In this document: positions 18,257 to 35,780 of the stretch, piece by piece
Numbering within the stretch: position 1 is the stretch's first letter
How the letters are laid out: every line of letters begins with the position of its first letter
NCBI GenBank assembly: GCA_024654575.1
Contig: JANLHG010000005.1
Location: 1,260 to 65,259 of the forward strand
From: Patescibacteria group bacterium
GTDB lineage: Bacteria > Patescibacteriota > Minisyncoccia > Phycocordibacterales > PALSA-1337
Reading direction: 5' to 3'
Length of the DNA stretch: 64,000 nt
Made by a program: the position numbers and the translations under genes
Notes under the pieces: generated by a model
Told to the model about the DNA's origin: nothing
What the model saw: the letters and a program-made list of their open reading frames with translations, nothing else
Database searches by the model: none

Positions 18257-18332
18257 GCTCCGGTGTAGCTCAGCGGTAGAGCAGTCGCCTGTTAAGCGAT
18301 TGGTCGCAGGTTCGATCCCTGCCGCCGGAGCA
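18257..18332 (+). tRNA. tRNA-Asn (anticodon GTT)
   Basis: Cloverleaf by eye: acceptor TCCGGTG/CGCCGGA, D arm GCTC-AGCGGTA-GAGC, anticodon stem GTCGC/GCGAT with loop CTGTTAA, T arm GCAGG-TTCGATC-CCTGC, discriminator G73. No encoded CCA. Confidence 0.85.
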
Positions 18333-18355
18333 GACAATAGGATTTAAATCATGTG

Positions 18356-18395
18356 TAAGCGATTGGTCGTTGGTTCGAATCCAACCGCCGGAGCA
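18356..18395 (+). repeat. Duplicated tRNA 3' half (anticodon-loop to 3' end) with compensatory T-stem substitutions, att-like
   Basis: TAAGCGATTGGTCG-TTGG-TTCGAAT-CCAA-CCGCCGGAGCA compared with tRNA-Asn TAAGCGATTGGTCG-CAGG-TTCGATC-CCTG-CCGCCGGAGCA. T-stem pairing is preserved despite different bases. It lies 24 nt after the intact tRNA. Confidence 0.7.
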
Positions 18396-18476
18396 GTTGA
18401 CAAGTATATTTAACTATGATTAGATAACATAATAGTAGTTTTTTGACATATTTTTTGGTAGTTAGCTATTTTTCTT

Positions 18477-18866
18477 ATGAACCCGATAACAAATCAACTG
18501 CGTACGATGTATGAGGAAGAGGTTGCTGACATACGACGTAAAAAACATTACAGCAATCCAAAACTTGACCTTGAAGATATTCTGAAAAAGAGTGTTCTCC
18601 TGGGTACAGTTTCAGACCACTTCAATAGATTTATGGCTGTAATGGATTTATTCGATAAAAATAAGCTCAAAACTGGAGAGGACTATTTCTATGCTTCATT
18701 TATCTTAAGTCAAGAAGATGAAGCTCCAAATTTAGCCCTTGGTTGCATGTTGGCACAAGCATCAGGGAAACTAAATTTTTCCGGAAATATAGACGTCCCT
18801 GATGTTGACGAATACATCAAGTGTCTACAAGATGCATTCTTCACCAGACTTACTGGTATAAATTAA
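18477..18866 (+). CDS. Hypothetical protein (129 aa)
   Basis: Has an intact ORF with a downstream terminator. No recognisable motif. Confidence 0.45.
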   Translation: MNPITNQLRTMYEEEVADIRRKKHYSNPKLDLEDILKKSVLLGTVSDHFNRFMAVMDLFDKNKLKTGEDYFYASFILSQEDEAPNLALGCMLAQASGKLNFSGNIDVPDVDEYIKCLQDAFFTRLTGIN

Positions 18867-18876
18867 CCTATCACTG

Positions 18877-18927
18877 CCCCTCAAAGACTGCCACGATGGC
18901 ACTTTGTTGGGGTAGTTTTTTTATACA
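18877..18927 (+). terminator. Rho-independent terminator (imperfect long hairpin plus T7)
   Basis: cccctcaaagactgccacgatggcactttgttgggg followed by tagttttttt. Confidence 0.55.
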
Positions 18928-18980
18928 AAACTAAACATCCTCATTTCCTTTTCAATAACAGATCAACTAATAATTCTAAT

Positions 18981-19000
18981 CTCGTCCAACATGCGGAGTT
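18981..19000 (+). repeat. Degenerate tRNA-3'-end-like direct repeat, copy R2
   Basis: ctcgtccaacatgcggagtt, compared with the R1/tRNA segment TTCGAATCCAACCGCCGGAGCA. Confidence 0.45.
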
Positions 19001-19085
19001 AATCAAGATGATTCCCTTGCATTATTTGTAACTCTTATGTTATGATGTAAATATCACCACGAAAAAGCTCCTGTGAGGCTAGTCC

Positions 19086-19604
19086 TTACAGGGCCTTTTT
19101 CTTTATATGTGTGTATTCTATCTTGCTTTTAACTTCATTAAGAAATATAAGATATTTTTCTGAATTTGTATTGATTTTTTTAAGTAAAGCCGAATATCTT
19201 TTATGATCTGGTATTACTACTGCTTGAAGTTTTTTATTATCTCTAAGATACTCTGCTAAACAGTAAAAATCACCATCTCCAGATACAATAACGGCTTTGT
19301 TGTAATGAGGATATTCAATCATAGAATGGAGAACAAGCTCTGCATCACAATTTCCTTTCGTGGAGTTATCTTTATATATTAAAGTTGGTTTAAAAATAAC
19401 AATGTATCCATCTTCTTGAAGCTTTTTATACATTTGCTGATTACCTTCCACATAACCTATAAAGATATATGCTTTTTCAATTTTATATTTATCTTTCAGA
19501 TATATTCTGAATTTAGTAAAATCAATTTTCCACCCTTGATTTTTTATACCAAGATAAAGATTTTGACTGTCTATAAAAGCATAATTATTTTCTCCAGATG
19601 TCAT
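19086..19604 (-). CDS. NYN-domain (LabA-like) predicted ribonuclease
   Basis: The N-terminal part is YAFIDSQNLYLGI. It continues with …NCDAELVLHSM… and VIVSGDGDF, following the NYN/PIN-like acidic motif pattern. Confidence 0.75.
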   Translation of the reverse strand: MTSGENNYAFIDSQNLYLGIKNQGWKIDFTKFRIYLKDKYKIEKAYIFIGYVEGNQQMYKKLQEDGYIVIFKPTLIYKDNSTKGNCDAELVLHSMIEYPHYNKAVIVSGDGDFYCLAEYLRDNKKLQAVVIPDHKRYSALLKKINTNSEKYLIFLNEVKSKIEYTHIKKKAL

Positions 19605-19654
19605 ATTAAAATTAATATTACCATAGAATATGCAGTAAATTTAATTACAATAGG

Positions 19655-19680
19655 CTCTAACTTCGTTCAACATGCGGAGC
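19655..19680 (+). repeat. Degenerate tRNA-3'-end-like direct repeat, copy R3
   Basis: ctctaacttcgttcaacatgcggagc. Confidence 0.5.
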
Positions 19681-19989
19681 CAAGTAGGTTTACTAGCTAA
19701 ATCTAGTACCAAATTATATGGAGAAGCTATTGTAAAATATAGCTTTTTTCCGTTTACAGAAAGGTTCTGAATTAAATAATTCAAAAATACTTTTTTCTCG
19801 TGTGGTTTAGAACTTTCAAAGATTGACTTAGCACGGCGAGCAACTGAAATCACTGATGCTACAGTGTTTTGATAGTCATAATCTGCTTTTGTGTGTTCTT
19901 CAAGTTCAATGTTTAAGACTTGTATCTTGTCGTGATATAATGTCGGAATGAAAGGCTACGTTGCAGATTAAGAAAGGAGAAAAACCTCG

Positions 19990-20091
19990 ATGGCAGTGGG
20001 GACCACGTTAGGTAGTGATTTCATCAAAAAGTTGGAGCTCAGAAATCATTTAGATATTAACTATGATACAATGGATATATGGAATCATTAA
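19990..20091 (+). CDS. Candidate small ORF (33 aa) with a strong SD
   Basis: aaaggag lies 7 nt upstream of ATG. The product is MAVGTTLGSDFIKKLELRNHLDINYDTMDIWNH*. Not in the ORF track because of its length. Confidence 0.2.
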   Translation: MAVGTTLGSDFIKKLELRNHLDINYDTMDIWNH

Positions 20092-20330
20092 TAAAATTAG
20101 ATATTTTCTTTTTTATATCTTCTGTGGCAACAGTTATATTGACGATTTTAGTTTCCATTATCCTTTTTTATTTTATCAAAGCTGGAAAGAATCTCTATCT
20201 GCTTTCAGAAGAACTTAAGAATGATTTTAAGGGGTCGGAAGCGTTCGTCGTAGAGCTTAAGGAACGTTTGGAAGACAACATAGTTTTTCGACTTTTCTTT
20301 CCCCCATCTCGAAAAAAACGAAATCATTAA
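20079..20330 (+). CDS. Small membrane protein (83 aa)
   Basis: One TM helix (FFISSVATVILTILVSIILFYFI) and a charged tail. Confidence 0.35.
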   Translation: MESLIKLDIFFFISSVATVILTILVSIILFYFIKAGKNLYLLSEELKNDFKGSEAFVVELKERLEDNIVFRLFFPPSRKKRNH

Positions 20331-20352
20331 TAATTAATAACTTTTTAAAACA

Positions 20353-20694
20353 ATGCAAAAGAAAACAACAAAAATAAATTCCACTGCAATGGAATTAGGT
20401 ATCCTCGGTGCAAGTATTGCTGGTATAGCTGCTGCATATTTCTTCCTCGGTCCAAAAGGTAAAAAACACCAGAAACAAATGAAGGTATGGGCAATAAAAA
20501 TGAAAGCTGATGTTGTAGAAAAACTCGAAGAAGCTCGTGATATAAGCGAACCCATATTTCATCAAATCATTGACTCTATAGCGGAAGAATATGAACAAAA
20601 AGCGAAAATTGGTCGTGAAGAAATTCAGTTATTGGCGAAGGACTTAAAGAAACACTGGAAATTAATTAGTAAGGAAGCAGGTATTGATAAGTAA
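20353..20694 (+). CDS. YtxH-like (DUF948) membrane-anchored protein
   Basis: GILGASIAGIAAAYFFLGPKGKKHQKQMK follows the YtxH G-rich helix plus APKSGK-like motif. It ends in a charged coiled-coil tail. Confidence 0.5.
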   Translation: MQKKTTKINSTAMELGILGASIAGIAAAYFFLGPKGKKHQKQMKVWAIKMKADVVEKLEEARDISEPIFHQIIDSIAEEYEQKAKIGREEIQLLAKDLKKHWKLISKEAGIDK

Positions 20695-20770
20695 TATATA
20701 TGTACACATACAACTGGTACTCACAAATTATCAAACCATAATGTAAGTGCTATAACCCCTTACACACCCG

Positions 20771-20796
20771 CTCTAACTTCTTCCACCATGCGGAGC
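20771..20796 (+). repeat. Degenerate tRNA-3'-end-like direct repeat, copy R4 (with TTYGAACCTG tail motif about 45 nt downstream)
   Basis: ctctaacttcttccaccatgcggagc, then …ctaggtagggcgtttgaacctgtgg at about 20830-20850. Confidence 0.5.
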
Positions 20797-20903
20797 TGCA
20801 GAAAATAATACCAAAGTATAGGGGTTATTTTATACCATCTAGGTAGGGCGTTTGAACCTGTGGTATGATTTTGATATTAGAATTAGAATAGCACTACACA
20901 CAT

Positions 20904-21581
20904 ATGAAATTATTTTTAGGGGGTGGAGGAAGAAAAGAAGATTCGACAGAGCTAGACAAAAATTTTGTTGCTAATTTAGATTTATCTAAACCTCTTTTAT
21001 ATATTCCAATAGCTATAAATACTAACAAGTATCCATACTCCGGTTGTATAAATTGGCTTCGTGATATATTAAGCCCCTTAGGGGTAAAGAATATTGTAAT
21101 GTGGATTGAAGATGATTTAAAGAAAAAACAAGAGAAAGATTTTGAACAATTCTCAGGTGTCTATATAGGAGGTGGTAACACTTTCAAATTACTTAAAGAA
21201 TTAAAAGAATTTGGTACATTCGAAATATTGAAAAGATTAGCCAAAAAAGATGTTCCAATTTATGGCGGAAGTGCTGGTGCAATAATAATGGCAAAAACCA
21301 TCATACCAGCATTATCTGCAGATGAAAATAATGTTGGTTTAACTGATTATTCAGCAATGAATTTAGTAAAAGATTATGATATTTGGTGTCATTATTCAGA
21401 GTCGTTAGATACGATGATAAAAGATTATACGAATAAATATGGTTTAAATAAAATAGTAGCGATACCTGAAAAAGCTGGACTTTTTATTACAGAAAAATCT
21501 AAAATAGTGATAGGACCAGCGAATGTTTATATCATCGAACAAAATAGGAAAACTATTTTAAAACCTGGATCAAAATTTTAA
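20904..21581 (+). CDS. Peptidase S51 (dipeptidase E / alpha-aspartyl dipeptidase-like) family protein
   Basis: Contains the IYGGSAGAIIMAKTII (GxSAG) nucleophile-elbow motif in a class-I-GATase-like fold context. Length is 225 aa, similar to PepE. Confidence 0.65.
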   Translation: MKLFLGGGGRKEDSTELDKNFVANLDLSKPLLYIPIAINTNKYPYSGCINWLRDILSPLGVKNIVMWIEDDLKKKQEKDFEQFSGVYIGGGNTFKLLKELKEFGTFEILKRLAKKDVPIYGGSAGAIIMAKTIIPALSADENNVGLTDYSAMNLVKDYDIWCHYSESLDTMIKDYTNKYGLNKIVAIPEKAGLFITEKSKIVIGPANVYIIEQNRKTILKPGSKF

Positions 21582-21682
21582 GCTTGCTCATCTAAAATAT
21601 TTGTGGTACTTTTTGTTATAGATTTACTCATTGAAAATTAGGACAAAAAACATCAATCAAACCCGTAGAAAGGAATTTTACA

Positions 21683-21883
21683 ATGCAAAAACTAGCCAAG
21701 TTGGTTATCGGTGATACAGTCGCTTTAATCACTCCTGCTGGAATGCCACCAGAGAGATTTCGTCATTACATCCCTTTAATGGAAGAATATGTTCAAAAAG
21801 AGGGTTTTCGAACAAAAACATATCTTTCATCTGAACAATCATCAGACCAAGAGTTGGCGGAATTATTTTATTATATAGCTTGA
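21683..21883 (+). pseudogene. N-terminal fragment of an LD-carboxypeptidase (peptidase S66, LdcA/MccF-like); truncated at 66 aa
   Basis: LVIGDTVALITPAGMPPERF matches the S66 N-terminus (L.pGD.I.ivAPSs). The ORF ends long before the catalytic Ser/His region. Confidence 0.4.
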
Positions 21884-22068
21884 CATTTTTAGATGTAAAA
21901 TGATAAACTTTATCTATGAAATTTAGTGTTATAAACACATGGAATCGTAGAGGTAGCCGAATTATTCAGGCTACTTTTGAGTGTTTGTAATTTTCTCCTA
22001 GCGTATTATGAACTTTCTAAAGCGGCCTGAAGGTCGCTATTTTATTATCATATTAACCAAAAACTAGC

Positions 22069-22659
22069 ATGAGCAAAAACCTAAAAATAATTCCTGATTC
22101 AAAATTAGTTAAAATACCGATAAAAGATAACGGTGAACCTTTAGTTTATATAAATGATTTTGTTCCAAAAGTGGTAATCAAAATTCCTAAATACATCAAA
22201 GATGAGGGTGAGAAATTCATTAAACAATCTTCAAAGGTAAGAATCAGTGTTGCAAAAATGTTAAAAATTGCCCAAGAATTGCTTCCAGATCAATATAGAC
22301 TAAGAATAAGAAGTGGCTACAGGTCGTTAATGATTCAGAAAAAAGCTTATCAGAGAACGTTTAATAAAATGAGAAAAAATAATCCCAACTGGAGTTTAGA
22401 CAAACTAAAAGATGAAGTGAGTAAATTTGTTGCTCCTTTAGACATTGTTCCACCACATTCAACCGGCGGAGCTGTTGATATATCAATAATTGGACCAAAT
22501 GATAAACAGTTAGATATGGGGACAAGAATTGGACAAGATACTCGTTTGGAAAAAACCAGAACTGATTCTAATAAGATATCATCAATGGCCATAAAAAATA
22601 GAAAATTACTGGTGAAAATAATGTCTACAGCTGGATTCATAAATTATCCAACCGAATAG
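22069..22659 (+). CDS. D-Ala-D-Ala dipeptidase-like zinc peptidase (M15D, VanX/DdpX family)
   Basis: Contains SGYRS and HSTGGAVDISI (compare VanX SxHxxGxAxD) in a 196-aa protein. Confidence 0.65.
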   Translation: MSKNLKIIPDSKLVKIPIKDNGEPLVYINDFVPKVVIKIPKYIKDEGEKFIKQSSKVRISVAKMLKIAQELLPDQYRLRIRSGYRSLMIQKKAYQRTFNKMRKNNPNWSLDKLKDEVSKFVAPLDIVPPHSTGGAVDISIIGPNDKQLDMGTRIGQDTRLEKTRTDSNKISSMAIKNRKLLVKIMSTAGFINYPTE

Positions 22660-22743
22660 TGGCATTGGTCTTATGGTGACAGATATTGGGCTGCTAAATT
22701 AAAAAAAAGATACTCTATTTATAAAGGTATTTAAATTAAAAAC

Positions 22744-23439
22744 ATGAAAAATAAAACAATCGGGGTGCTTGGAGGAATGGGACCAGGAGCCTCAGCTAAT
22801 CTGTATATGGAGATTATTAAGTATTCTCAACAGAAATATGGTGCAATTCAGGATATTGATTATCCGCCCGTTATTATTTACAGCTTACCCTTGGAAGGTT
22901 TTGATGAAAAAGGAATTGCTAATGAGAAATTGGTTGAGAGCCAACTCATAGATGGGGTTAAAAAGTTAGAATCGGCAGGTTGTGATCTGATAATAATTGG
23001 TTGTAATACCGTTCATATTCTTTTCAATAAAATGCAAAAAGCTGTCAAAATTCCTATCCTAAATATCATCGAGGTGACAAAAAATAAAGTTATGAAGTTT
23101 GGCTATAAGAAGATCGGGTTATTTGCCTCAGAAAGCACAAGTAACTCCGGTCTATATCAAAATAATTTTAAGAAAGACGGAATTCAGGTCATTTCTCCAA
23201 ATAAAGATCAGCAGAAAATATTAAATAGAGTGATAGAACATGTAATGGGTGGTAATCAAAAAGCAGATGATATCATTCTTTTAAAAGATGTCGCTCGAGA
23301 TTATCTAAAACAAGGAGTCGAAGCGATCGTTATGGGCTGTACTGAAATCCCTCTAGCAATAAATCAGACTCATACAGATATTAAACTATTTAATACAATA
23401 GAAATAATTGTACAGTCAGCAGTAGATTTTTCTCTATAA
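22744..23439 (+). CDS. Aspartate racemase (Asp/Glu/hydantoin racemase superfamily)
   Basis: Contains the three racemase motifs GVLGGMGPGAS, IIGCNTVHILF and MGCTEIPLAI. Length is 231 aa. Confidence 0.8.
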   Translation: MKNKTIGVLGGMGPGASANLYMEIIKYSQQKYGAIQDIDYPPVIIYSLPLEGFDEKGIANEKLVESQLIDGVKKLESAGCDLIIIGCNTVHILFNKMQKAVKIPILNIIEVTKNKVMKFGYKKIGLFASESTSNSGLYQNNFKKDGIQVISPNKDQQKILNRVIEHVMGGNQKADDIILLKDVARDYLKQGVEAIVMGCTEIPLAINQTHTDIKLFNTIEIIVQSAVDFSL

Positions 23440-23444
23440 ACACA

Positions 23445-23478
23445 CCCTAACTTCTTCCACCATGTGGAGCAGTTGACA
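23445..23478 (+). repeat. Degenerate tRNA-3'-end-like direct repeat, copy R5, sharing the GGAGCAGTTGACAA extension with R1
   Basis: ccctaacttcttccaccatgtggagcagttgaca. Confidence 0.5.
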
Positions 23479-23501
23479 AAATCAATAAAAAGATATAATA
23501 T
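23473..23501 (+). promoter_or_regulatory. Promoter-like element inside R5 (TTGACA-17-TAATAT), oriented antisense to the NUDIX/AbiE genes
   Basis: The hexamers carry a 17-nt spacer. There is no plus-strand ORF downstream for about 2 kb. Confidence 0.3.
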
Positions 23502-23630
23502 CAACTCTAGAAATAAAGAAAGTGTTGCACTTTTTACTCGTATCAATTACCTCAAGACTATGCTTTATTCCAAAAAATTTCCTCCAGCATCGGAAGTTAT
23601 ACAAACCCTTGCTTGTTATTTACCCAACAT

Positions 23631-24080
23631 TTAAAAGTCAATAAAAATTTCTTTTATTTTTTTCTGAGTATCTTTTAGTTGTCCATCAAAAAGCAAATAA
23701 TCTTTTAATTGCATAAAGGGTACCCACTTATAAGCTCTCACCTCACCATCTTTTGGTTTAATTTCATTGTCATCACCAACAAAACGGAAACCAAAAAAGT
23801 ATCTTTTTGATCCTTCATAGTTCTGACCGTCGCGATTCATTTTAATAACCTTAAATTTGAACTTTATTGGATTACTACTCTGACCCACAAACTGAAGAGA
23901 TTTTTTTTCTATACTCAACTCTTCATGTATCTCTCGATATACTGCATTTTCTAAAGTTTCTTCTTGTTCAACTCCGCCACCAGGAATTGCAAAATACCTA
24001 TCTTCAAAAGATTCTAAATTCACTAAAAGAAACTCTTTGTCTTTATTAATAATAAGTGCTGAAACGCCTTTTCTGTACAT
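23631..24080 (-). CDS. NUDIX hydrolase
   Basis: Contains the NUDIX box GGGVEQEETLENAVYREIHEELSI (Gx5Ex7REUxEExGU). Confidence 0.8.
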   Translation of the reverse strand: MYRKGVSALIINKDKEFLLVNLESFEDRYFAIPGGGVEQEETLENAVYREIHEELSIEKKSLQFVGQSSNPIKFKFKVIKMNRDGQNYEGSKRYFFGFRFVGDDNEIKPKDGEVRAYKWVPFMQLKDYLLFDGQLKDTQKKIKEIFIDF

Positions 24081-24089
24081 AATATATAA

Positions 24090-24794
24090 TCATTTATTTA
24101 AATCTTCATTATCTTGCATGATTTTTAACAAAAAAATTGTATCGAATTTTAATTTTGCTCGTGCTGAATCTTTTTGTGGATCAGTCAATAACTCTCCAAG
24201 ACCATCCAAGATATGCTTGTTGTCCATTTTTTCTAACATCTCAACGCACTTTACTAAAGCATCCTTAAAAGACATACCCGACCTCTCTTCAACAATCTGA
24301 CGATTGATCGGCCAGTTATTTTTGGCAAAATAATGAATATCAAAAATATCTCGGCTTGTTTTTCCAATCCTTTCATACATAGCCATAAGCTTATGCGCAA
24401 ACATATCCTCTTGGACCATTACAAGCATTGAAATACCAAGTAAAGTTTTCACCTCATATTTTGACCCAAATTGTCTGCGACTTACTTCGACTTTTATATT
24501 CTGAGCTTTGGGATCGTAAGAAATAACATTTCTTAAATTAGATTTCTGTATGTATGAATCTGTAATTTTTCCATAATTACTTATAATCTCGTTTATCTTT
24601 TCAAAAACTTCGGTTTCTTTAGTTTCATCTAATAAATCAAAATCCAAATCTACAGAATTTCTTGGTAAATCATAAAACATCATAGCCGCTGTACCACCCT
24701 TGAAACCAAGATATGACGCGAGAGAAATATCTGAATAAATATCTTTCAAAATCTGAAGCATAATATTTTTATGTTTTGAATAATCTAATGTCAT
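24090..24794 (-). CDS. abiEii: AbiEii/AbiGii-family nucleotidyltransferase toxin (DUF1814; type IV TA / abortive infection)
   Basis: FKGGTAAMMFYDLPRNSVDLDFDLL is the Pol-beta-like NTase GG[ST] motif plus acidic dyad, characteristic of AbiEii. It overlaps the upstream partner by 4 bp. Confidence 0.8.
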   Translation of the reverse strand: MTLDYSKHKNIMLQILKDIYSDISLASYLGFKGGTAAMMFYDLPRNSVDLDFDLLDETKETEVFEKINEIISNYGKITDSYIQKSNLRNVISYDPKAQNIKVEVSRRQFGSKYEVKTLLGISMLVMVQEDMFAHKLMAMYERIGKTSRDIFDIHYFAKNNWPINRQIVEERSGMSFKDALVKCVEMLEKMDNKHILDGLGELLTDPQKDSARAKLKFDTIFLLKIMQDNEDLNK

Positions 24795-25375
24795 ATAGTT
24801 TTATAATATTCATTGACTTTTTTAACCATTCTTTTATTGTGATAAATCGGTAATATCTCAAATACTTTATCCCAATTCAAATTAGTTAAGTTGTCAAAAT
24901 GATAATCCTTGCTTACATATATTCTATCCAAAAAAGCACGCTCTCGTGTAGCAATTGCATAACCATCTTTATGTTCAATACCTAAAGTATTACTTAAAAC
25001 ATAATCCTTCATCCGAACAAAAGTAATTTTTTGTTCTCTAACTATAATTTCTCGATTAACATAAGAAGAAACGAAAATATTTCCGTAATATTGAAAATTT
25101 ATACCCTCTCTTGTTAAGACAGTTTCAAAACTAATATAGGCAGGAGTATAGATTCTAGTTGCTAATTCAAATCGATTATAGTTTTTATCCTTTGCATAAA
25201 AGCCACGATGCACTCGAATTAACTTTCCAGCCACGACATACTTGTTTAATCTTCCACTGACAGTTGATTTTTTCTCTTCACTCCATAATAAAGCCACATC
25301 TTTTGTGGAAAAGATTGTTTTTGACGATCTTAATAATACCTCTAAATATTCACCTTTTGTTGGTTTTTTGTCCAC
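24791..25375 (-). CDS. abiEi: AbiEi-family antitoxin / transcriptional regulator (wHTH plus C-terminal domain)
   Basis: The gene is 194 aa, lies immediately upstream of the AbiEii gene and overlaps it. A near-palindromic operator sits upstream. Size and organisation are canonical for AbiEi. Confidence 0.6.
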   Translation of the reverse strand: MDKKPTKGEYLEVLLRSSKTIFSTKDVALLWSEEKKSTVSGRLNKYVVAGKLIRVHRGFYAKDKNYNRFELATRIYTPAYISFETVLTREGINFQYYGNIFVSSYVNREIIVREQKITFVRMKDYVLSNTLGIEHKDGYAIATRERAFLDRIYVSKDYHFDNLTNLNWDKVFEILPIYHNKRMVKKVNEYYKTI

Positions 25376-25382
25376 TTTATTA

Positions 25383-25411
25383 CTGGAAGTTACCTTAAAA
25401 GTAATCTCCAG
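25383..25411 (-). promoter_or_regulatory. Near-perfect inverted repeat upstream of abiEi; candidate autoregulatory operator
   Basis: ctggaagttacc-ttaaaa-gtaatctccag is an 11-nt arm pair with 2 mismatches. It lies 8 nt upstream of the abiEi start. Confidence 0.5.
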
Positions 25412-25456
25412 TTCATATCTTAATACTTTTGGTAAATAAGTGCAAGTGATACGAGC

Positions 25457-25480
25457 GAGCTTCGTCCAACATACGGGAGC
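25457..25480 (+). repeat. Degenerate tRNA-3'-end-like direct repeat, copy R6 (with TTCGAACCTG tail motif)
   Basis: gagcttcgtccaacatacgggagc, then …ctaggacattcgaacctgc. Confidence 0.5.
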
Positions 25481-25547
25481 AGATAAAATATCTAGGACAT
25501 TCGAACCTGCTATAGAATTTTATATTTAAATATGGTATATTTTTGGC

Positions 25548-26003
25548 ATGGAAAATTGTGTTTTTTGTAAAATCGTAAGTGGCGAACTGCCTTGCTACAA
25601 AATATGGGAGGATGAAAAGCATTTAGCTTTTCTTTCCCGCAACCCCAACACGGAAGGTTTTTCAGTTGTCATAACCAAAGAGCACTATCCGAGCTATGCA
25701 TTCGATCTTCCTGATCAGGTTTTAACCGACCTTATTCTTGTAACAAAGAAAGTCGGAAAGTTGATTGATTCTAAACTTGATGATGTCGGAAGAACCGGCA
25801 TGATCTTTGAAGGATTCGGAGTTGACCATATCCATGCCAAACTTTTCCCAATGCATGGTACAAAAGATATGGGAGAGTGGAAGTCGATGAAATCCAATGT
25901 GGACAAGTATTTTGAAATCTACGAAGGATACATCTCTTCCCATGATTATAAACCCTCAACTAACGAAGAGCTTGCGAAAATTGCTTCTAAGTTCAAGCAG
26001 TAA
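25548..26003 (+). CDS. HIT-family (histidine triad-like) hydrolase
   Basis: The N-terminus is CVFCKIVSGELPCYKIWEDEKHLAFL. The HIT-like motif is VDHIHAKLFP. Confidence 0.55.
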   Translation: MENCVFCKIVSGELPCYKIWEDEKHLAFLSRNPNTEGFSVVITKEHYPSYAFDLPDQVLTDLILVTKKVGKLIDSKLDDVGRTGMIFEGFGVDHIHAKLFPMHGTKDMGEWKSMKSNVDKYFEIYEGYISSHDYKPSTNEELAKIASKFKQ

Positions 26004-26086
26004 TTTTTATAAAACCGAAAGTCAATCTAACGAGTAGGTTTTTTTATGGTATAATTTAGTAAATTCAAATAACATAAATAAAATAT

Positions 26087-26503
26087 ATGAAAATAGAAAA
26101 AATTGTTATGTTCTTACTTCGTTTGGTTATGAGTTTTACTTTTCTTTGGGCATTTTTTGATAAGGTCTTTGGTTTAGGTTTTGCTACTACCGCAGATAAG
26201 GCATGGATTAACGGAATATCACCAACTTATGGTTTTTTGAAATTTGCATCAAAAGGTCCATTCGTTGAAATATTTCATAATCTAGCCGGTGTAGTTTTAG
26301 TTGATTGGTTATTTATGCTTGGTCTTCTTTTTGTTGGTCTTGCTCTCATTTTCAACAGATTTATAAAATTAGGATGTCTTGCTGGAATTTTAATGATGGC
26401 ACTTATGTATCTAGCTTTGCTTTTCCCAATAAACAATCCTATTATTGATGAGCATATTGTTTATATTCTAGTTCTAGCCCTTATAGCTATCAAAAAAGAA
26501 TAA
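26087..26503 (+). CDS. DoxX-like small integral membrane protein
   Basis: A 138-aa protein with four predicted TM helices. Confidence 0.4.
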   Translation: MKIEKIVMFLLRLVMSFTFLWAFFDKVFGLGFATTADKAWINGISPTYGFLKFASKGPFVEIFHNLAGVVLVDWLFMLGLLFVGLALIFNRFIKLGCLAGILMMALMYLALLFPINNPIIDEHIVYILVLALIAIKKE

Positions 26504-26506
26504 GTT

Positions 26507-27256
26507 TTACACACTGCAACTACCTGAACTCTGACGAAGTTGCGGTTGTGTGACTTGAGATACAATTTTAGCGTATCCTTGAGCACTAGAATAATTTGCG
26601 CCAAGAATTTCTTGTGGATTTACATTTTTCCATTCAACACCTTTATTTTTCATATAAGTTTTTATTACTGCGTAATTATCTGGAAACCAATTTGAATTCA
26701 TCGTTAAAGCATTTTTCCACATATCTTTTTCACTCATATCTTGTGACGCCATTAATTCAAGAAGTCCCAACATAGCCATACCATGATTACAATCAGGAAA
26801 ATGAGTAGAATTTCCACAACATGGTCGGTATATACCTAATGACATTTTATCTACTAATGCTTGTTGTTCCGGTGTTAAATTAAAAAACTTATGACGACTA
26901 TAATGATCCATCGGATTACCATGGGCTATTGTCCAACCAGCTGTAGAAGCAAAATTTTGTGCTCCTCCATATCTTTTATCCATCATCTCGCCAGATTCTA
27001 AAATTGGATTTTTACTAGCAAGACCAAGTGCCCAAAGCAAGTTGAGAATGGAATGATTATATGTAATATCAAATCTATCTGGATCAATCACTCCAACACT
27101 TATCATTTTTTCAGTAAGATCACCCCACCCTTCTATGATTTCTTCTTTAGTTTGAATATTTTGAATATTATCTGTACCTTTATAAAACATTGCTCCACCA
27201 ATAATAATTCCCGCAACAACTATAGCTAGCGGTACTTTTTTTATTTCTTTTTCCAT
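26507..27256 (-). CDS. Hypothetical membrane-anchored Cys-rich protein
   Basis: Has an N-terminal TM segment and a CCGNSTHFPDCNHG cluster. It lies in the copper/redox neighbourhood. Confidence 0.45.
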   Translation of the reverse strand: MEKEIKKVPLAIVVAGIIIGGAMFYKGTDNIQNIQTKEEIIEGWGDLTEKMISVGVIDPDRFDITYNHSILNLLWALGLASKNPILESGEMMDKRYGGAQNFASTAGWTIAHGNPMDHYSRHKFFNLTPEQQALVDKMSLGIYRPCCGNSTHFPDCNHGMAMLGLLELMASQDMSEKDMWKNALTMNSNWFPDNYAVIKTYMKNKGVEWKNVNPQEILGANYSSAQGYAKIVSQVTQPQLRQSSGSCSV

Positions 27257-33813: not shown

Positions 33814-34950
33814 TCAACCAACAAGTTTCCATAGAAGCTCAGTTCCTCCTTTGAAGACTTGGACTTCTCCGACTTTCTGCGGAACGACAAGCGCCCCGCG
33901 TTCGATCGTCATCATCTCCGAGCTCACTTCCATGCCATAAAGCGCGAGGAAGTTTTCGGAAAGGAACGGACCGAGATGTTCGAGTGCGTTGTCCTGGTCG
34001 AAGGTCATCGTGTAGAGCTCAACGGCCGAGGGAGCGGTGAAGATGCCAGCCGCACAGCCATAGCAGCGAGACTTTGCACTTTCATCGTGAGGAGCGGAAT
34101 CCGTTCCTGCTCCGAAGCGACGATTACCCGAAGTCACATACTGCCGGACTTTTGCACGATGCGTTTCGCGCTTCGGCACAGGCTTGCAGTAGTGGCCAGG
34201 ATTCATCCCACCCCAGAACATGGCGTTGCGATTAATCATCAGATGATGAGCAGTCACAGTCGCATGGATATCGTGATCGACTTCTGCGACGAAGTCGGCC
34301 GCTCGTCCATCGGTGAGATGTTCGAAGACCACCGGCAATCCTGGAAAGGACTTGAGGATGGGCTTGAGGTCGCGGTCCACGGAAACGCTCTCGCGATCGA
34401 ATTCGTCGACATCTTCCTCGACTGCTTCGAAGTGTCCAAGCAATGGGATTTTGTGTTTCTCCATCACCTCGAACACCGGATAGCGACCAAGAAGATTCTT
34501 CACGCCGTGCGCCGAGCCAGTGGTGCCACCCTGGCCTTTTTGATTGGCCATGTAGAGCTTCACCGCTCGCCAAACACCTTCTTCGAAACCGCGCACGACT
34601 TCTTCAGGATCGATATGATCCGTCAGATACAGCGTCATGCAAGGCACGAAGTCGTAATCCTTCTTCCAATACCATTCTTGTCCTTTCGGAGCATTAGTAT
34701 TGAAGCGTAAACTCGTCATAACTTGTTCGATCTCTTTACGGTAATCTTTCGCTTTTTCAATCGTCGTTACCGGGTCAGCAAGGTTTGGCATGATAATCGC
34801 CCCCGTTGCATGCTGTTTGAGTGTACACGGAAGAACGGTCTTGAGCATATCACCACTTCGAAGGTGAAGATGACGGTCAAACCATCGAGGTATTGTTACC
34901 GAGTTTTCTTTCATGAGTTTTCCTTTTTGATAAACGATGTGGGTTTCCAC
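33814..34950 (-). CDS. pyrC: Dihydroorotase, type II (E. coli PyrC-like); GC-rich foreign composition
   Basis: FDRHLHLRSGDMLKTVLP, AIIMPNLADPVTT, CMTLYLTDHIDPEEVVRGFEEGV, PLLGHFE, VVFEHLT, GTDSAPH and CYGCAAGIFTAPSA align motif-by-motif to E. coli PyrC. DNA is about 55% GC. Confidence 0.9.
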   Translation of the reverse strand: METHIVYQKGKLMKENSVTIPRWFDRHLHLRSGDMLKTVLPCTLKQHATGAIIMPNLADPVTTIEKAKDYRKEIEQVMTSLRFNTNAPKGQEWYWKKDYDFVPCMTLYLTDHIDPEEVVRGFEEGVWRAVKLYMANQKGQGGTTGSAHGVKNLLGRYPVFEVMEKHKIPLLGHFEAVEEDVDEFDRESVSVDRDLKPILKSFPGLPVVFEHLTDGRAADFVAEVDHDIHATVTAHHLMINRNAMFWGGMNPGHYCKPVPKRETHRAKVRQYVTSGNRRFGAGTDSAPHDESAKSRCYGCAAGIFTAPSAVELYTMTFDQDNALEHLGPFLSENFLALYGMEVSSEMMTIERGALVVPQKVGEVQVFKGGTELLWKLVG

Positions 34951-35780
34951 GGAGTCCGCAGATGAATTGCACCGAAGCCGATCGCTTTCGCGCCGAGCCT
35001 CCTAAGCTTTTCCATGTCTTCGAATTCCATGATACTTGGACCGATCACAGGAAGCGATCCTTGTTTAGCGAGAGCTTCGACTGCCGCCCAGTTGTGTTTC
35101 TGTGCCGGTTTGCCGGAGACGCCTCCGCCTCCACCACCGACTTGTTTTTCGAGCTTCGCTAAAGGGGTCTGCCCGCTGTTAGTAAAGACCGTCTTCCACG
35201 GCACGCTGTTGAGGGAAACCGCTTCCGCGATTCCGACAAGTCCGCGTGCAATAGTGAGATAGTCCTGATCAGCCGAGACTTTGACGATTACGGGGTGACG
35301 CGAAGCGCGTTTGACCGCCTTCACACTATTCACCACCATTTCTGCCTGTTCGATTGCATGGCCAGTATTCGGACACGAGACGTTGACTTCAAGCGCAACG
35401 ATATCGAAGCGATTGAGCATCTCCGCCATTTCCACCAGTTCCTTTTCATCGCCGAAAATTGATCCGGCTGTTGGGAACTTTTTGAAATCGAGTTTGGGAC
35501 CGACTTCTCGGCACCACCACTCGACACCAGGATTAGTGAGCCCAACTTTATTGACCGCTCCGCCTGGAATCAGGCGAACGCAGGTCCAAGGCTTCCACCA
35601 TCGTAGGTTTCCGATACGCGGGTTGCGCGTCAGAGATTTGATGACTACAGTGAAGAGTTCGGGCTTGATGAGACCGAGCCACACCAGTGGCCGTTCCCAA
35701 GGCCAGCCCTTGCCATCAAAGGCAAGAGCGCCGCTTGCAACCATGTATTTGAACGCATGTCCGTTTGATAATGTGATCAT
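34911..35780 (-). CDS. pyrD: Dihydroorotate dehydrogenase, class 1 (Cys active site, PyrD 1A-like); GC-rich foreign composition
   Basis: Contains NKVGLTNPGVEW, ALEVNVSCPNTGH (NxSCPN), GGGGGVSGKP and a C-terminal GFGAIHL. It overlaps pyrC by 40 nt. Confidence 0.85.
   Translation of the reverse strand: MITLSNGHAFKYMVASGALAFDGKGWPWERPLVWLGLIKPELFTVVIKSLTRNPRIGNLRWWKPWTCVRLIPGGAVNKVGLTNPGVEWWCREVGPKLDFKKFPTAGSIFGDEKELVEMAEMLNRFDIVALEVNVSCPNTGHAIEQAEMVVNSVKAVKRASRHPVIVKVSADQDYLTIARGLVGIAEAVSLNSVPWKTVFTNSGQTPLAKLEKQVGGGGGGVSGKPAQKHNWAAVEALAKQGSLPVIGPSIMEFEDMEKLRRLGAKAIGFGAIHLRTPWKPTSFIKKENS

Follow-up and report, generated by a model that had tools for sequence, protein, structure and literature searches.

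The stretch of DNA analysed here (the window, 64,000 nucleotides of contig JANLHG010000005.1 from a Patescibacteria group bacterium, about 32% GC; all positions are those of the window unless a locus is named) carries at 20904-23439 four co-oriented genes encoding an S51-family peptidase, a fragment of an S66 LD-carboxypeptidase, an M15 dipeptidase of the VanX/DdpX type and an Asp/Glu-family amino-acid racemase. An earlier note made from the letters alone (the original prediction) had described these four open reading frames (ORFs) as one processing module in an accessory slot between two repeats, R4 and R5. The ORFs were found at 20904-21581, 21683-21883, 22069-22659 and 22744-23439, and the repeats bound them as described, the 24-nt core standing at 20773-20796 and 23447-23470 with 0 chance matches expected. 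Two NCBI proteins deposited from a 'Patescibacteria group bacterium' metagenome-assembled genome (MAG), P0001 and P0121, are identical to two of the window ORFs. The block contains the following features (L001 is a related locus that carries the M15-racemase pair):

20761-20805 (+): repeat copy R4, left bound of the block (core 20773-20796, 0 mismatches)
20904-21581 (+): S51-family peptidase, intact (Ser123, His163, candidate Glu189), from profile and structure alignment
21683-21883 (+): N-terminal relic of an S66 LD-carboxypeptidase, a conserved mini-ORF of 66 amino acids (aa) without catalytic residues, identified by transitive homology
21925-22068 (+): structured, conserved leader ahead of the M15-racemase unit; a terminator-like hairpin (22021-22038) is followed by a T-run
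22069-22735 (+): M15 (VanX/DdpX-like) dipeptidase gene; a TAG at 22657-22659 limits the ORF to 196 aa, against 221 aa when restored
22744-23439 (+): Asp/Glu-family amino-acid racemase independent of pyridoxal phosphate (PLP), intact, 89% identical to the L001 copy, from profile and structure matches
23435-23479 (+): repeat copy R5, right bound of the block (core 23447-23470), from the repeat search

The M15 ORF matches the family profile PF01427 (cutoff 27 bits) with 37.4 bits as encoded and with 61.1 bits when the TAG is restored to Trp, and its sole match among solved structures is VanX (1R44, E 1.2e-5). The encoded protein ends in ...INYPTE, followed by the TAG, and the same frame goes on as WHWSYGDRYWAAKLKKRYSIYKGI to a TAA at 22733-22735, a run of 24 family-typical codons. 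The TAG occupies the first Trp of the catalytic E-W-W-H motif (PTEWWHW), which corresponds to W182 of VanX, between Glu181 and His184. This motif is essentially invariant: among 25 homologues aligned with the query, position 197 is Trp in 24 and Tyr in one, and the codon at the site is TGG in all eight homologous loci examined, so that the window differs by a single G-to-A transition. Homologues that cover at least 96% of the query at 60-75% identity run from 211 to 232 aa, the close ones all from 215 to 224 aa, and only the product of this genome has 196 aa. Arg85, His130, Asp137 and Glu196 are present; because the stop sits at codon 197, the product lacks His199, which we take, from the VanX literature, to be the third zinc ligand, and a complete zinc site (His-Asp-His) together with the catalytic Glu and the Arg is not contained in one polypeptide. 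Compared with L001, the ratio of nonsynonymous to synonymous change (dN/dS) is 0.10 upstream of the stop and 0.11 downstream, and there is no frameshift; the lesion is therefore recent, or else an artefact of the assembly or of the sampled population. The change from TGG to TAG looks recent. The original prediction had counted one broken gene, the S66 piece, but had overlooked the nonsense codon in the M15 gene, so that two of the four genes are defective as encoded and only those for S51 and the racemase are intact. A more general lesson is that a nonsense codon lying inside a catalytic motif escaped annotation.

The racemase, which begins 8 nt after the restored M15 frame, scores well above cutoff with PF01177 (118.5 bits, cutoff 31) and with the aspartate-racemase subfamily model TIGR00035 (161.4 bits, cutoff 93.1). 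Its best solved structure is the Pyrococcus horikoshii aspartate racemase (1JFL, E 1.9e-41), which aligns end to end and shares both cysteine motifs, GCNTVH with Cys87 and GCTE with Cys199; these are the two catalytic cysteines. The protein reaches no equivalog model (CuyB 154.7 bits against a cutoff of 190, PRK10200 73.5 against 417). With the score of the cysteate-racemase model CuyB so close to that of the aspartate model, 'aspartate' is only a family label for the window protein. A search of the literature for residues setting substrate specificity in this family returned nothing usable.

The S51 ORF matches PF03575 with 87.7 bits (E 1.1e-24, cutoff 23.9), and its Ser123 (within GGSAGA) and His163 align with the nucleophile and the His of PepE and of Listeria Lmo0363, with which it shares the S51 fold and the GxSAG nucleophile motif; the profile match, the Ser nucleophile and the His place it in MEROPS family S51. 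It stays far below the PepE equivalog model NF003642 (54.5 against 156 bits) and is by score not a PepE orthologue; an Asp-X specificity would be putative. NCBI lists the product under no more specific name than 'Type 1 glutamine amidotransferase-like domain-containing protein'. Proteins named from Zambryskibacteria and Paceibacterota are among the homologues at 75-77% identity, and in the two contexts examined such homologues adjoin NUDIX or M16 genes and glycosyltransferases, with none of M15, racemase or S66 found nearby. In two related loci (L170/171) the NUDIX gene lies directly 5' of the S51 gene. The gene encodes an independent and intact peptidase of the S51 family. Searches at E<=1e-5 returned 831 homologues of the S51 query and 1132 of the M15 query, and the source-named proteins among the best matches of both come mostly from Patescibacteria or DPANN, so that the idea of an unusual acquisition for such an organism is wrong.

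The 66-aa ORF taken alone has no match in Pfam, NCBIfam or the Protein Data Bank (PDB), even at E<=10. In an exhaustive phmmer search, however, its residues 2-62 match the N-terminus of a 350-aa protein, P0243, with 54% identity (E 1.1e-14), and since P0243 itself matches both Peptidase_S66 domains (PF02016 with 50.5 bits, PF17676 with 41.8 bits), the assignment of the ORF as an S66 fragment is correct. The subfamily is rare: among 1.8 billion representatives only four matches fell below 1e-10, one of them full length, and a BLASTP comparison with the S66 protein of locus L002 gave a marginal E of 0.033. Of some 350 residues the ORF retains 1-62, and no further S66 remnants were found in the window; the two domains with their Ser-Glu-His triad, which define an S66 peptidase, are not present in the ORF, and the relic cannot be a peptidase. 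Its counterpart in the related loci L174/175 (L174 175-384) is 69 aa long and 77% identical, with homology to the full-length S66 ending at residue 67, compared with residue 62 in the window. Between the window and L174 the relic has a dN/dS of about 0.10 over 62 codons (proportions of nonsynonymous and synonymous differences, pN and pS, 0.12 and 0.63). The description as a truncated S66 N-terminus of 66 aa therefore stands, but that as a pseudogene, in the sense of free drift, does not; such conservation, in an ORF kept intact in two diverged genomes, is unexpected for a pseudogene. An ancestral S51-S66 operon was considered as the source of the pair and set aside, no S51 gene being present beside the full-length S66 gene in the context of P0243. 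With this result all four family calls of the original prediction agree with the searches, those for S51, M15 and the racemase by profile and that for S66 by transitive homology.

The linkage of the four genes was analysed in 169 other loci with M15 homologues, drawn from genomes and metagenomes, each of which was searched for the other three genes within 10 kb; the absences of S51 and S66 refer to tblastn at E<=1e-4 with single queries. A scan of metagenomes for M15 relatives gave none above 67% identity among the matches listed. The racemase adjoins M15 in nine loci representing about six independent contexts, all of them loci of close homologues (identities are to the window proteins, followed by the gene order):

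L001: M15 71%, racemase 89%; M15, racemase
80-kb contig of P0009, and L085: M15 67%, racemase 82%; M15, racemase, with a 4-nt overlap
L002-L004: M15 69%, racemase 63%; racemase, M15
L086/87/91: M15 60%; PNP_UDP_1-racemase fusion (474 aa), M15
L090: M15 60%; PNP gene, racemase, M15 as three genes
L101: M15 48%, racemase 45%; racemase, M15

The genes flanking the pair differ in every context. The adjacency of M15 and the racemase outlasts reversals of gene order, a domain fusion and a change of neighbours, a pattern that is the classic mark of functional coupling. The 145 loci whose M15 identity is below 45% showed no racemase within 10 kb. An S51 gene was detected within 10 kb in none of the 169 loci, and S66 was found only in L002/3, where it is intact and lies 4.8 kb from the pair. 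The original prediction's four-gene module therefore lacks recurrent co-location, and its own condition for refutation, genes that are scattered in relatives, applies to S51 but not to M15 and the racemase. Nothing on the M15-racemase pairing turned up in the searchable literature, where both enzymes are named together in a single paper, a broad review of the cell walls of lactic acid bacteria (PMC4155827).

The PNP_UDP_1 domain (nucleoside phosphorylase/nucleosidase superfamily) recurs as a third partner of the pair: in L086 (8448-9872) it is fused to the racemase beside M15, and in L090 (5469-6894) it has a gene of its own that immediately precedes and overlaps that of the racemase.

The two halves of the block are also found apart in relatives. 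The loci L174/175 have the order S51 C-terminus, S66 relic and then directly a HIT-family gene, with no M15, racemase, NUDIX or AbiE genes; in the window the same HIT gene starts at 25548, 3.6 kb beyond the relic. L001, which shares with the window the upstream synteny of fmt, HPF and a PF02594 (PF1765-like) gene, has the order tRNA-Asn, about 330 nt, leader, M15 and racemase, and is 78% identical to the window over 21920-23436 at the nucleotide level. Since L174/175 and L001 each carry one half, the arrangement in the window represents the juxtaposition of two separately inherited units, with a junction at about 21865-21920; comparison with these relatives shows that the halves have separate histories.

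We therefore favour, as the rather more probable account, that the block, part of a variable region linked to tRNA-Asn, is no single pathway but a mosaic of two units, each with a history of its own, and that its second unit is a salvage pair, disabled in this genome. Unit A consists of the S51 serine peptidase and the 66-aa relic of the S66 LD-carboxypeptidase. Unit B consists, behind a leader of its own, of a cytoplasmic M15 (VanX/DdpX-type) zinc dipeptidase and, 8 nt further on, of the PLP-independent two-cysteine racemase. In unit B the dipeptidase would hydrolyse a D-amino-acid dipeptide (of the D-Ala-D-Ala type) originating from cell-wall turnover or from the environment, and the racemase would turn the released D-amino acid into the usable L-form; its role would be nutritional, like that proposed for E. 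coli DdpX, and would suit auxotrophic symbionts. The identities of the genes, their catalytic motifs, the nonsense codon, the linkage and the mosaic gene order are established; the substrates, the direction of flux and this nutritional role are what we infer for the pair. In the present genome the dipeptidase ends at Glu196, and the first step of the proposed route would be interrupted. The feature of interest is then a conserved M15-racemase pair, inactivated here and of predicted function, standing beside an unrelated pair of S51 gene and S66 relic. Patescibacteria depend on scavenged building blocks, and a dipeptidase-plus-racemase unit would offer a simple route from the D-dipeptides of other cells' walls to L-amino acids. 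The block also illustrates that a thematically coherent gene cluster can arise by accident of cassette accretion.

Several points weigh against this account. The M15 protein is far from both equivalogs of its family (43.6 against 176 bits for the DdpX model NF007557, 22.8 against 320 bits for the VanX model NF033115), and the racemase reaches a subfamily model only. The TAG may stem from an error of assembly or represent a minority allele of the MAG. In roughly four lineages (L088/89, L093, L096, L099) the M15 homologue is close and its flanks are adequate, yet no racemase adjoins it. All four products of the block act on peptides or D-amino acids, which the account has to take as a thematic coincidence; in L002/3 the pair has an intact S66 gene, an M20 peptidase and a major facilitator superfamily (MFS) transporter in its vicinity, some selection for the co-location of the four genes might have acted, and divergent S51 or S66 homologues could be missed by single-query tblastn.

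The alternative that survives best concerns the stop codon and not the block as a whole: the TAG would not inactivate the gene, being an error of sequencing or of assembly, an allele carried by a minority of the binned population or a codon that is read through, and M15 would be functional. The codon is a single base away from TGG, the 24 codons past it are intact and family-typical, with a dN/dS of 0.11, and the source is a MAG, all of which would fit. The deposited NCBI protein P0001 is nevertheless the same 196-aa product, TAG serves as the stop of 8 of the 60 long ORFs of the window (40 end in TAA and 12 in TGA), and the only tRNAs found in the window, tRNA-Asn GTT and tRNA-Gln CTG, include no suppressor; on this evidence we regard a functional M15 as rather unlikely. 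A general recoding of TAG is ruled out by the same eight ORFs.

It is unlikely that the four genes work together as a module for the salvage or remodelling of D-Asp- and D-Ala-containing peptidoglycan peptides, in which S66 would trim the tetrapeptide, M15 and S51 would cut dipeptides and the racemase would convert D-Asp. The confirmation of all four families, their common orientation within one pair of repeats, the S66, M20 and MFS genes near the racemase-M15 pair in L002/3 and a resemblance to the logic of B. subtilis ykfABCD all speak for such a module; it is opposed by the 169 other M15 loci, in which S51 was detected nowhere within 10 kb and S66 only in L002/3, by relatives that carry the two halves apart, by the 185-nt gap with terminator-like hairpins between the halves, and by the state of the genes themselves, the S66 piece being devoid of catalytic residues and M15 stopping short of its third zinc ligand.

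An anabolic role in wall remodelling like that of vanC-vanXY-vanT, in which the racemase would supply a D-amino acid for the cell's own peptidoglycan and M15 would remove D-Ala-D-Ala or trim precursors, also seems improbable. A D,D-peptidase beside a racemase is the arrangement of VanXYc-VanT, and a MurA-like gene (EPSP_synthase domain) lies near the pair in the syntenic L001. No ligase adjoins the pair in any locus, however, the racemase belongs to a superfamily other than that of VanT, and the organism tolerates the loss of M15 while the racemase is kept.

The weakest alternative, to which the original prediction had also given room, is a resistance or immunity cluster (glycopeptide resistance of the VanX type, or an MccF-type S66 enzyme detoxifying microcin-C-like aminoacyl-nucleotides), and we consider it most improbable: the M15 and S66 sequences do belong to the VanX/DdpX and MccF/LdcA families and the racemase is fused to a PNP_UDP_1 (nucleoside-phosphorylase-like) domain in L086 and adjoins one in L090, but both candidate resistance enzymes are truncated here (the S66 piece has no catalytic region, M15 no third zinc ligand), the VanX equivalog is missed by a wide score, the very numerous M15 homologues fit housekeeping better, and no vanH/vanA-type family and no ABC transporter was found in the 15 window ORFs scanned with Pfam (those at 18477-27256 and two at 33.8-35.8 kb), nor do the flanking genes listed for the pair in related loci include any vanH/vanA or ddpABCDF partner.

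Comparison with known systems places the proposed salvage pair more closely. E. coli DdpX is a 'survival' D-Ala-D-Ala dipeptidase for which a nutritional role has been proposed. DdpX (of ddpXABCDF) and the window M15 share PF01427, a cytoplasmic location, a length of about 200 aa, the SxYR, HxxGxAxD and ExxH motifs and the proposed nutritional role; the window protein differs in its low equivalog score, in having a racemase as partner where DdpX has a dipeptide ABC transporter, and in its stop codon. With VanX of vanHAX (1R44), the equivalents of Arg71, His116, Asp123, Glu181 and His184, whose roles we take from the VanX literature, can be aligned to the window M15 frame, whereas vanH/vanA neighbours are lacking, the score is below the equivalog and the His184 equivalent lies untranslated past the stop. 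The window M15 is a member of the VanX/DdpX family and an orthologue of neither, and it matches neither their equivalog scores nor their operon partners.

To our knowledge vanXYc-vanT is the only known D,D-peptidase-plus-racemase arrangement. In the vanC-type operons (vanC, vanXYc, vanT) an M15 D,D-peptidase is likewise placed beside an amino-acid racemase; VanT is a membrane-bound, PLP-dependent serine racemase accompanied by a ligase, whereas the window racemase is soluble, PLP-independent and of the two-cysteine type, with no ligase and no resistance context. The B. subtilis ykfABCD genes and E. coli LdcA, MpaA and YcjG follow the same logic, in which S66 and other peptidases act with a stereo-inverting enzyme to yield L-amino acids. 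Their inverting enzyme is a dipeptide epimerase of the enolase superfamily that acts before hydrolysis, whereas the window has a racemase for free amino acids, which would act after hydrolysis, and only a relic of S66.

The 185-nt spacer between the S66 relic and M15 contains two hairpins, one of which was found by the terminator scan (22021-22038 with its T-run) and lies about 30 nt upstream of the M15 start, with a possible alternative (antiterminator) pairing. The folding z-scores of the leader are -2.9 and -3.2. It aligns to L001 (9857-10000) with 80-85% identity over 21920-22068, and with a mean column identity of 85% over 21860-22075. No Rfam family matches it, and only three leaders are available (window, L001 and L085 2540-2703), two of them 85% identical to each other; wherever the racemase or PNP_UDP_1 gene precedes M15, the hairpin ahead of the start codon is nothing but the terminator of the upstream gene. 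For these reasons a riboswitch or attenuator was not upheld and is kept as a lead of low probability. In its boldest form, which we regard as a long shot, M15 and the racemase would be a self-contained mobile operon hopping between tRNA-linked sites of Patescibacteria, the leader would be a terminator/antiterminator switch responsive to D-amino acids or dipeptides, and the S66 relic (62-67 aa) would be a functional mini-protein. If true, the leader would represent an undescribed cis-regulatory RNA for D-amino-acid salvage in ultra-small symbionts.

The surroundings of the block bear out the accessory slot of the original prediction, in the form of a variable, repeat-bounded region downstream of a tRNA gene. 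The features of this region outside the block are:

18259-18331 (+): tRNA-Asn (GTT), anchor of the variable region (ARAGORN; Rfam RF00005, 69.3 bits)
18345-18396 (+): second copy of the tRNA-Asn 3' half (direct repeat D7, 85% identity), 14 nt after tRNA-Asn
18976-18999 (+): repeat copy with 5 mismatches to the core, from a fuzzy search; its antisense reads LRMLDEIR
19086-19604 (-): NYN-domain gene, cassette 1 (PF01936, E 5e-13)
19641-19853 (-): small ORF resembling a recombinase C-terminus, whose last codons are the repeat
19657-19680 (+): repeat copy inside the end of this small ORF; its antisense gives the last codons, WLRMLNEVR
20353-20694 (+): YtxH-like small protein, cassette 2, a weak match (PF12732, 24.2 bits, below the cutoff of 37.5)
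23631-25375 (-): NUDIX gene and AbiEii/AbiEi toxin-antitoxin pair, cassette 4 (PF00293, E 1.3e-20; PF08843, E 1.7e-16; PF13338, 23.4 bits, cutoff 25)
25459-25480 (+): degenerate fifth repeat copy just upstream of HIT; a similar sequence precedes HIT in L174
25548-26003 (+): HIT-family gene (PF01230), 83-85% amino-acid identity to L174/175

The 24-nt core of the repeat, CTAACTTCTTCCACCATGCGGAGC, is found at 18976, 19657, 20773 and 23447, with the degenerate copy at 25459, and its antisense reads LRM(V/L)(E/N/D)E(V/I)R. The repeats cut the region from 18.4 to 25.5 kb into four cassettes: the NYN gene; an ORF fragment and the YtxH-like gene; the four genes of the block; and NUDIX with AbiEii/AbiEi. 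The duplicated 3' half of the tRNA ends in a sequence that matches the 3' flank of the R5 copy, GGAGCAGTTGA. The small ORF at 19641-19853 has 31 homologues, all small proteins; those with a named source come from Patescibacteria, JGI calls one a 'site-specific DNA recombinase', and some extend antisense into the 3' end of a tRNA. Neither Pfam nor NCBIfam matches this ORF, and NCBIfam matches none of its homologues; the ORF may resemble the C-termini of large serine recombinases. We take the repeat copies to be att-like traces left by elements that integrated one after another.

Isolated copies of the repeat separate gene cassettes. Copies also occur in an unrelated locus, L121 (744 and 2785), where they differ from those of the window only at third codon positions, and one of them sits directly after an M15 gene. 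Integron attC sites were ruled out: the repeat measures about 24-45 nt, wherever it departs from the L121 copies it does so at the third base of an antisense codon, and the cassettes contain one to four genes on both strands.

The tRNA-Asn gene of L001 (9215-9521) is interrupted by a group I intron (RF00028, 52.1 bits, L001 9259-9475), and the window copy is intron-less. The duplicated tRNA half in the window is preceded by about 11 nt matching the 3' end of that intron (blastn, 90% identity to L001 9472-9521), and it looks like the footprint of an intron loss or of the replacement of a tRNA half.

In the cassette adjoining the racemase, AbiEii/AbiEi represent a type IV toxin-antitoxin pair (24090-25375, minus strand). 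Further downstream, a 2-kb block at 33814-35780 (minus strand) has a GC content of 47-52%, compared with about 32% for the genome; it is not rRNA and contains two overlapping minus-strand ORFs, one of 378 aa with no Pfam match and the other encoding a dihydroorotate dehydrogenase (PF01180, 68.5 bits), and it is probably foreign DNA.

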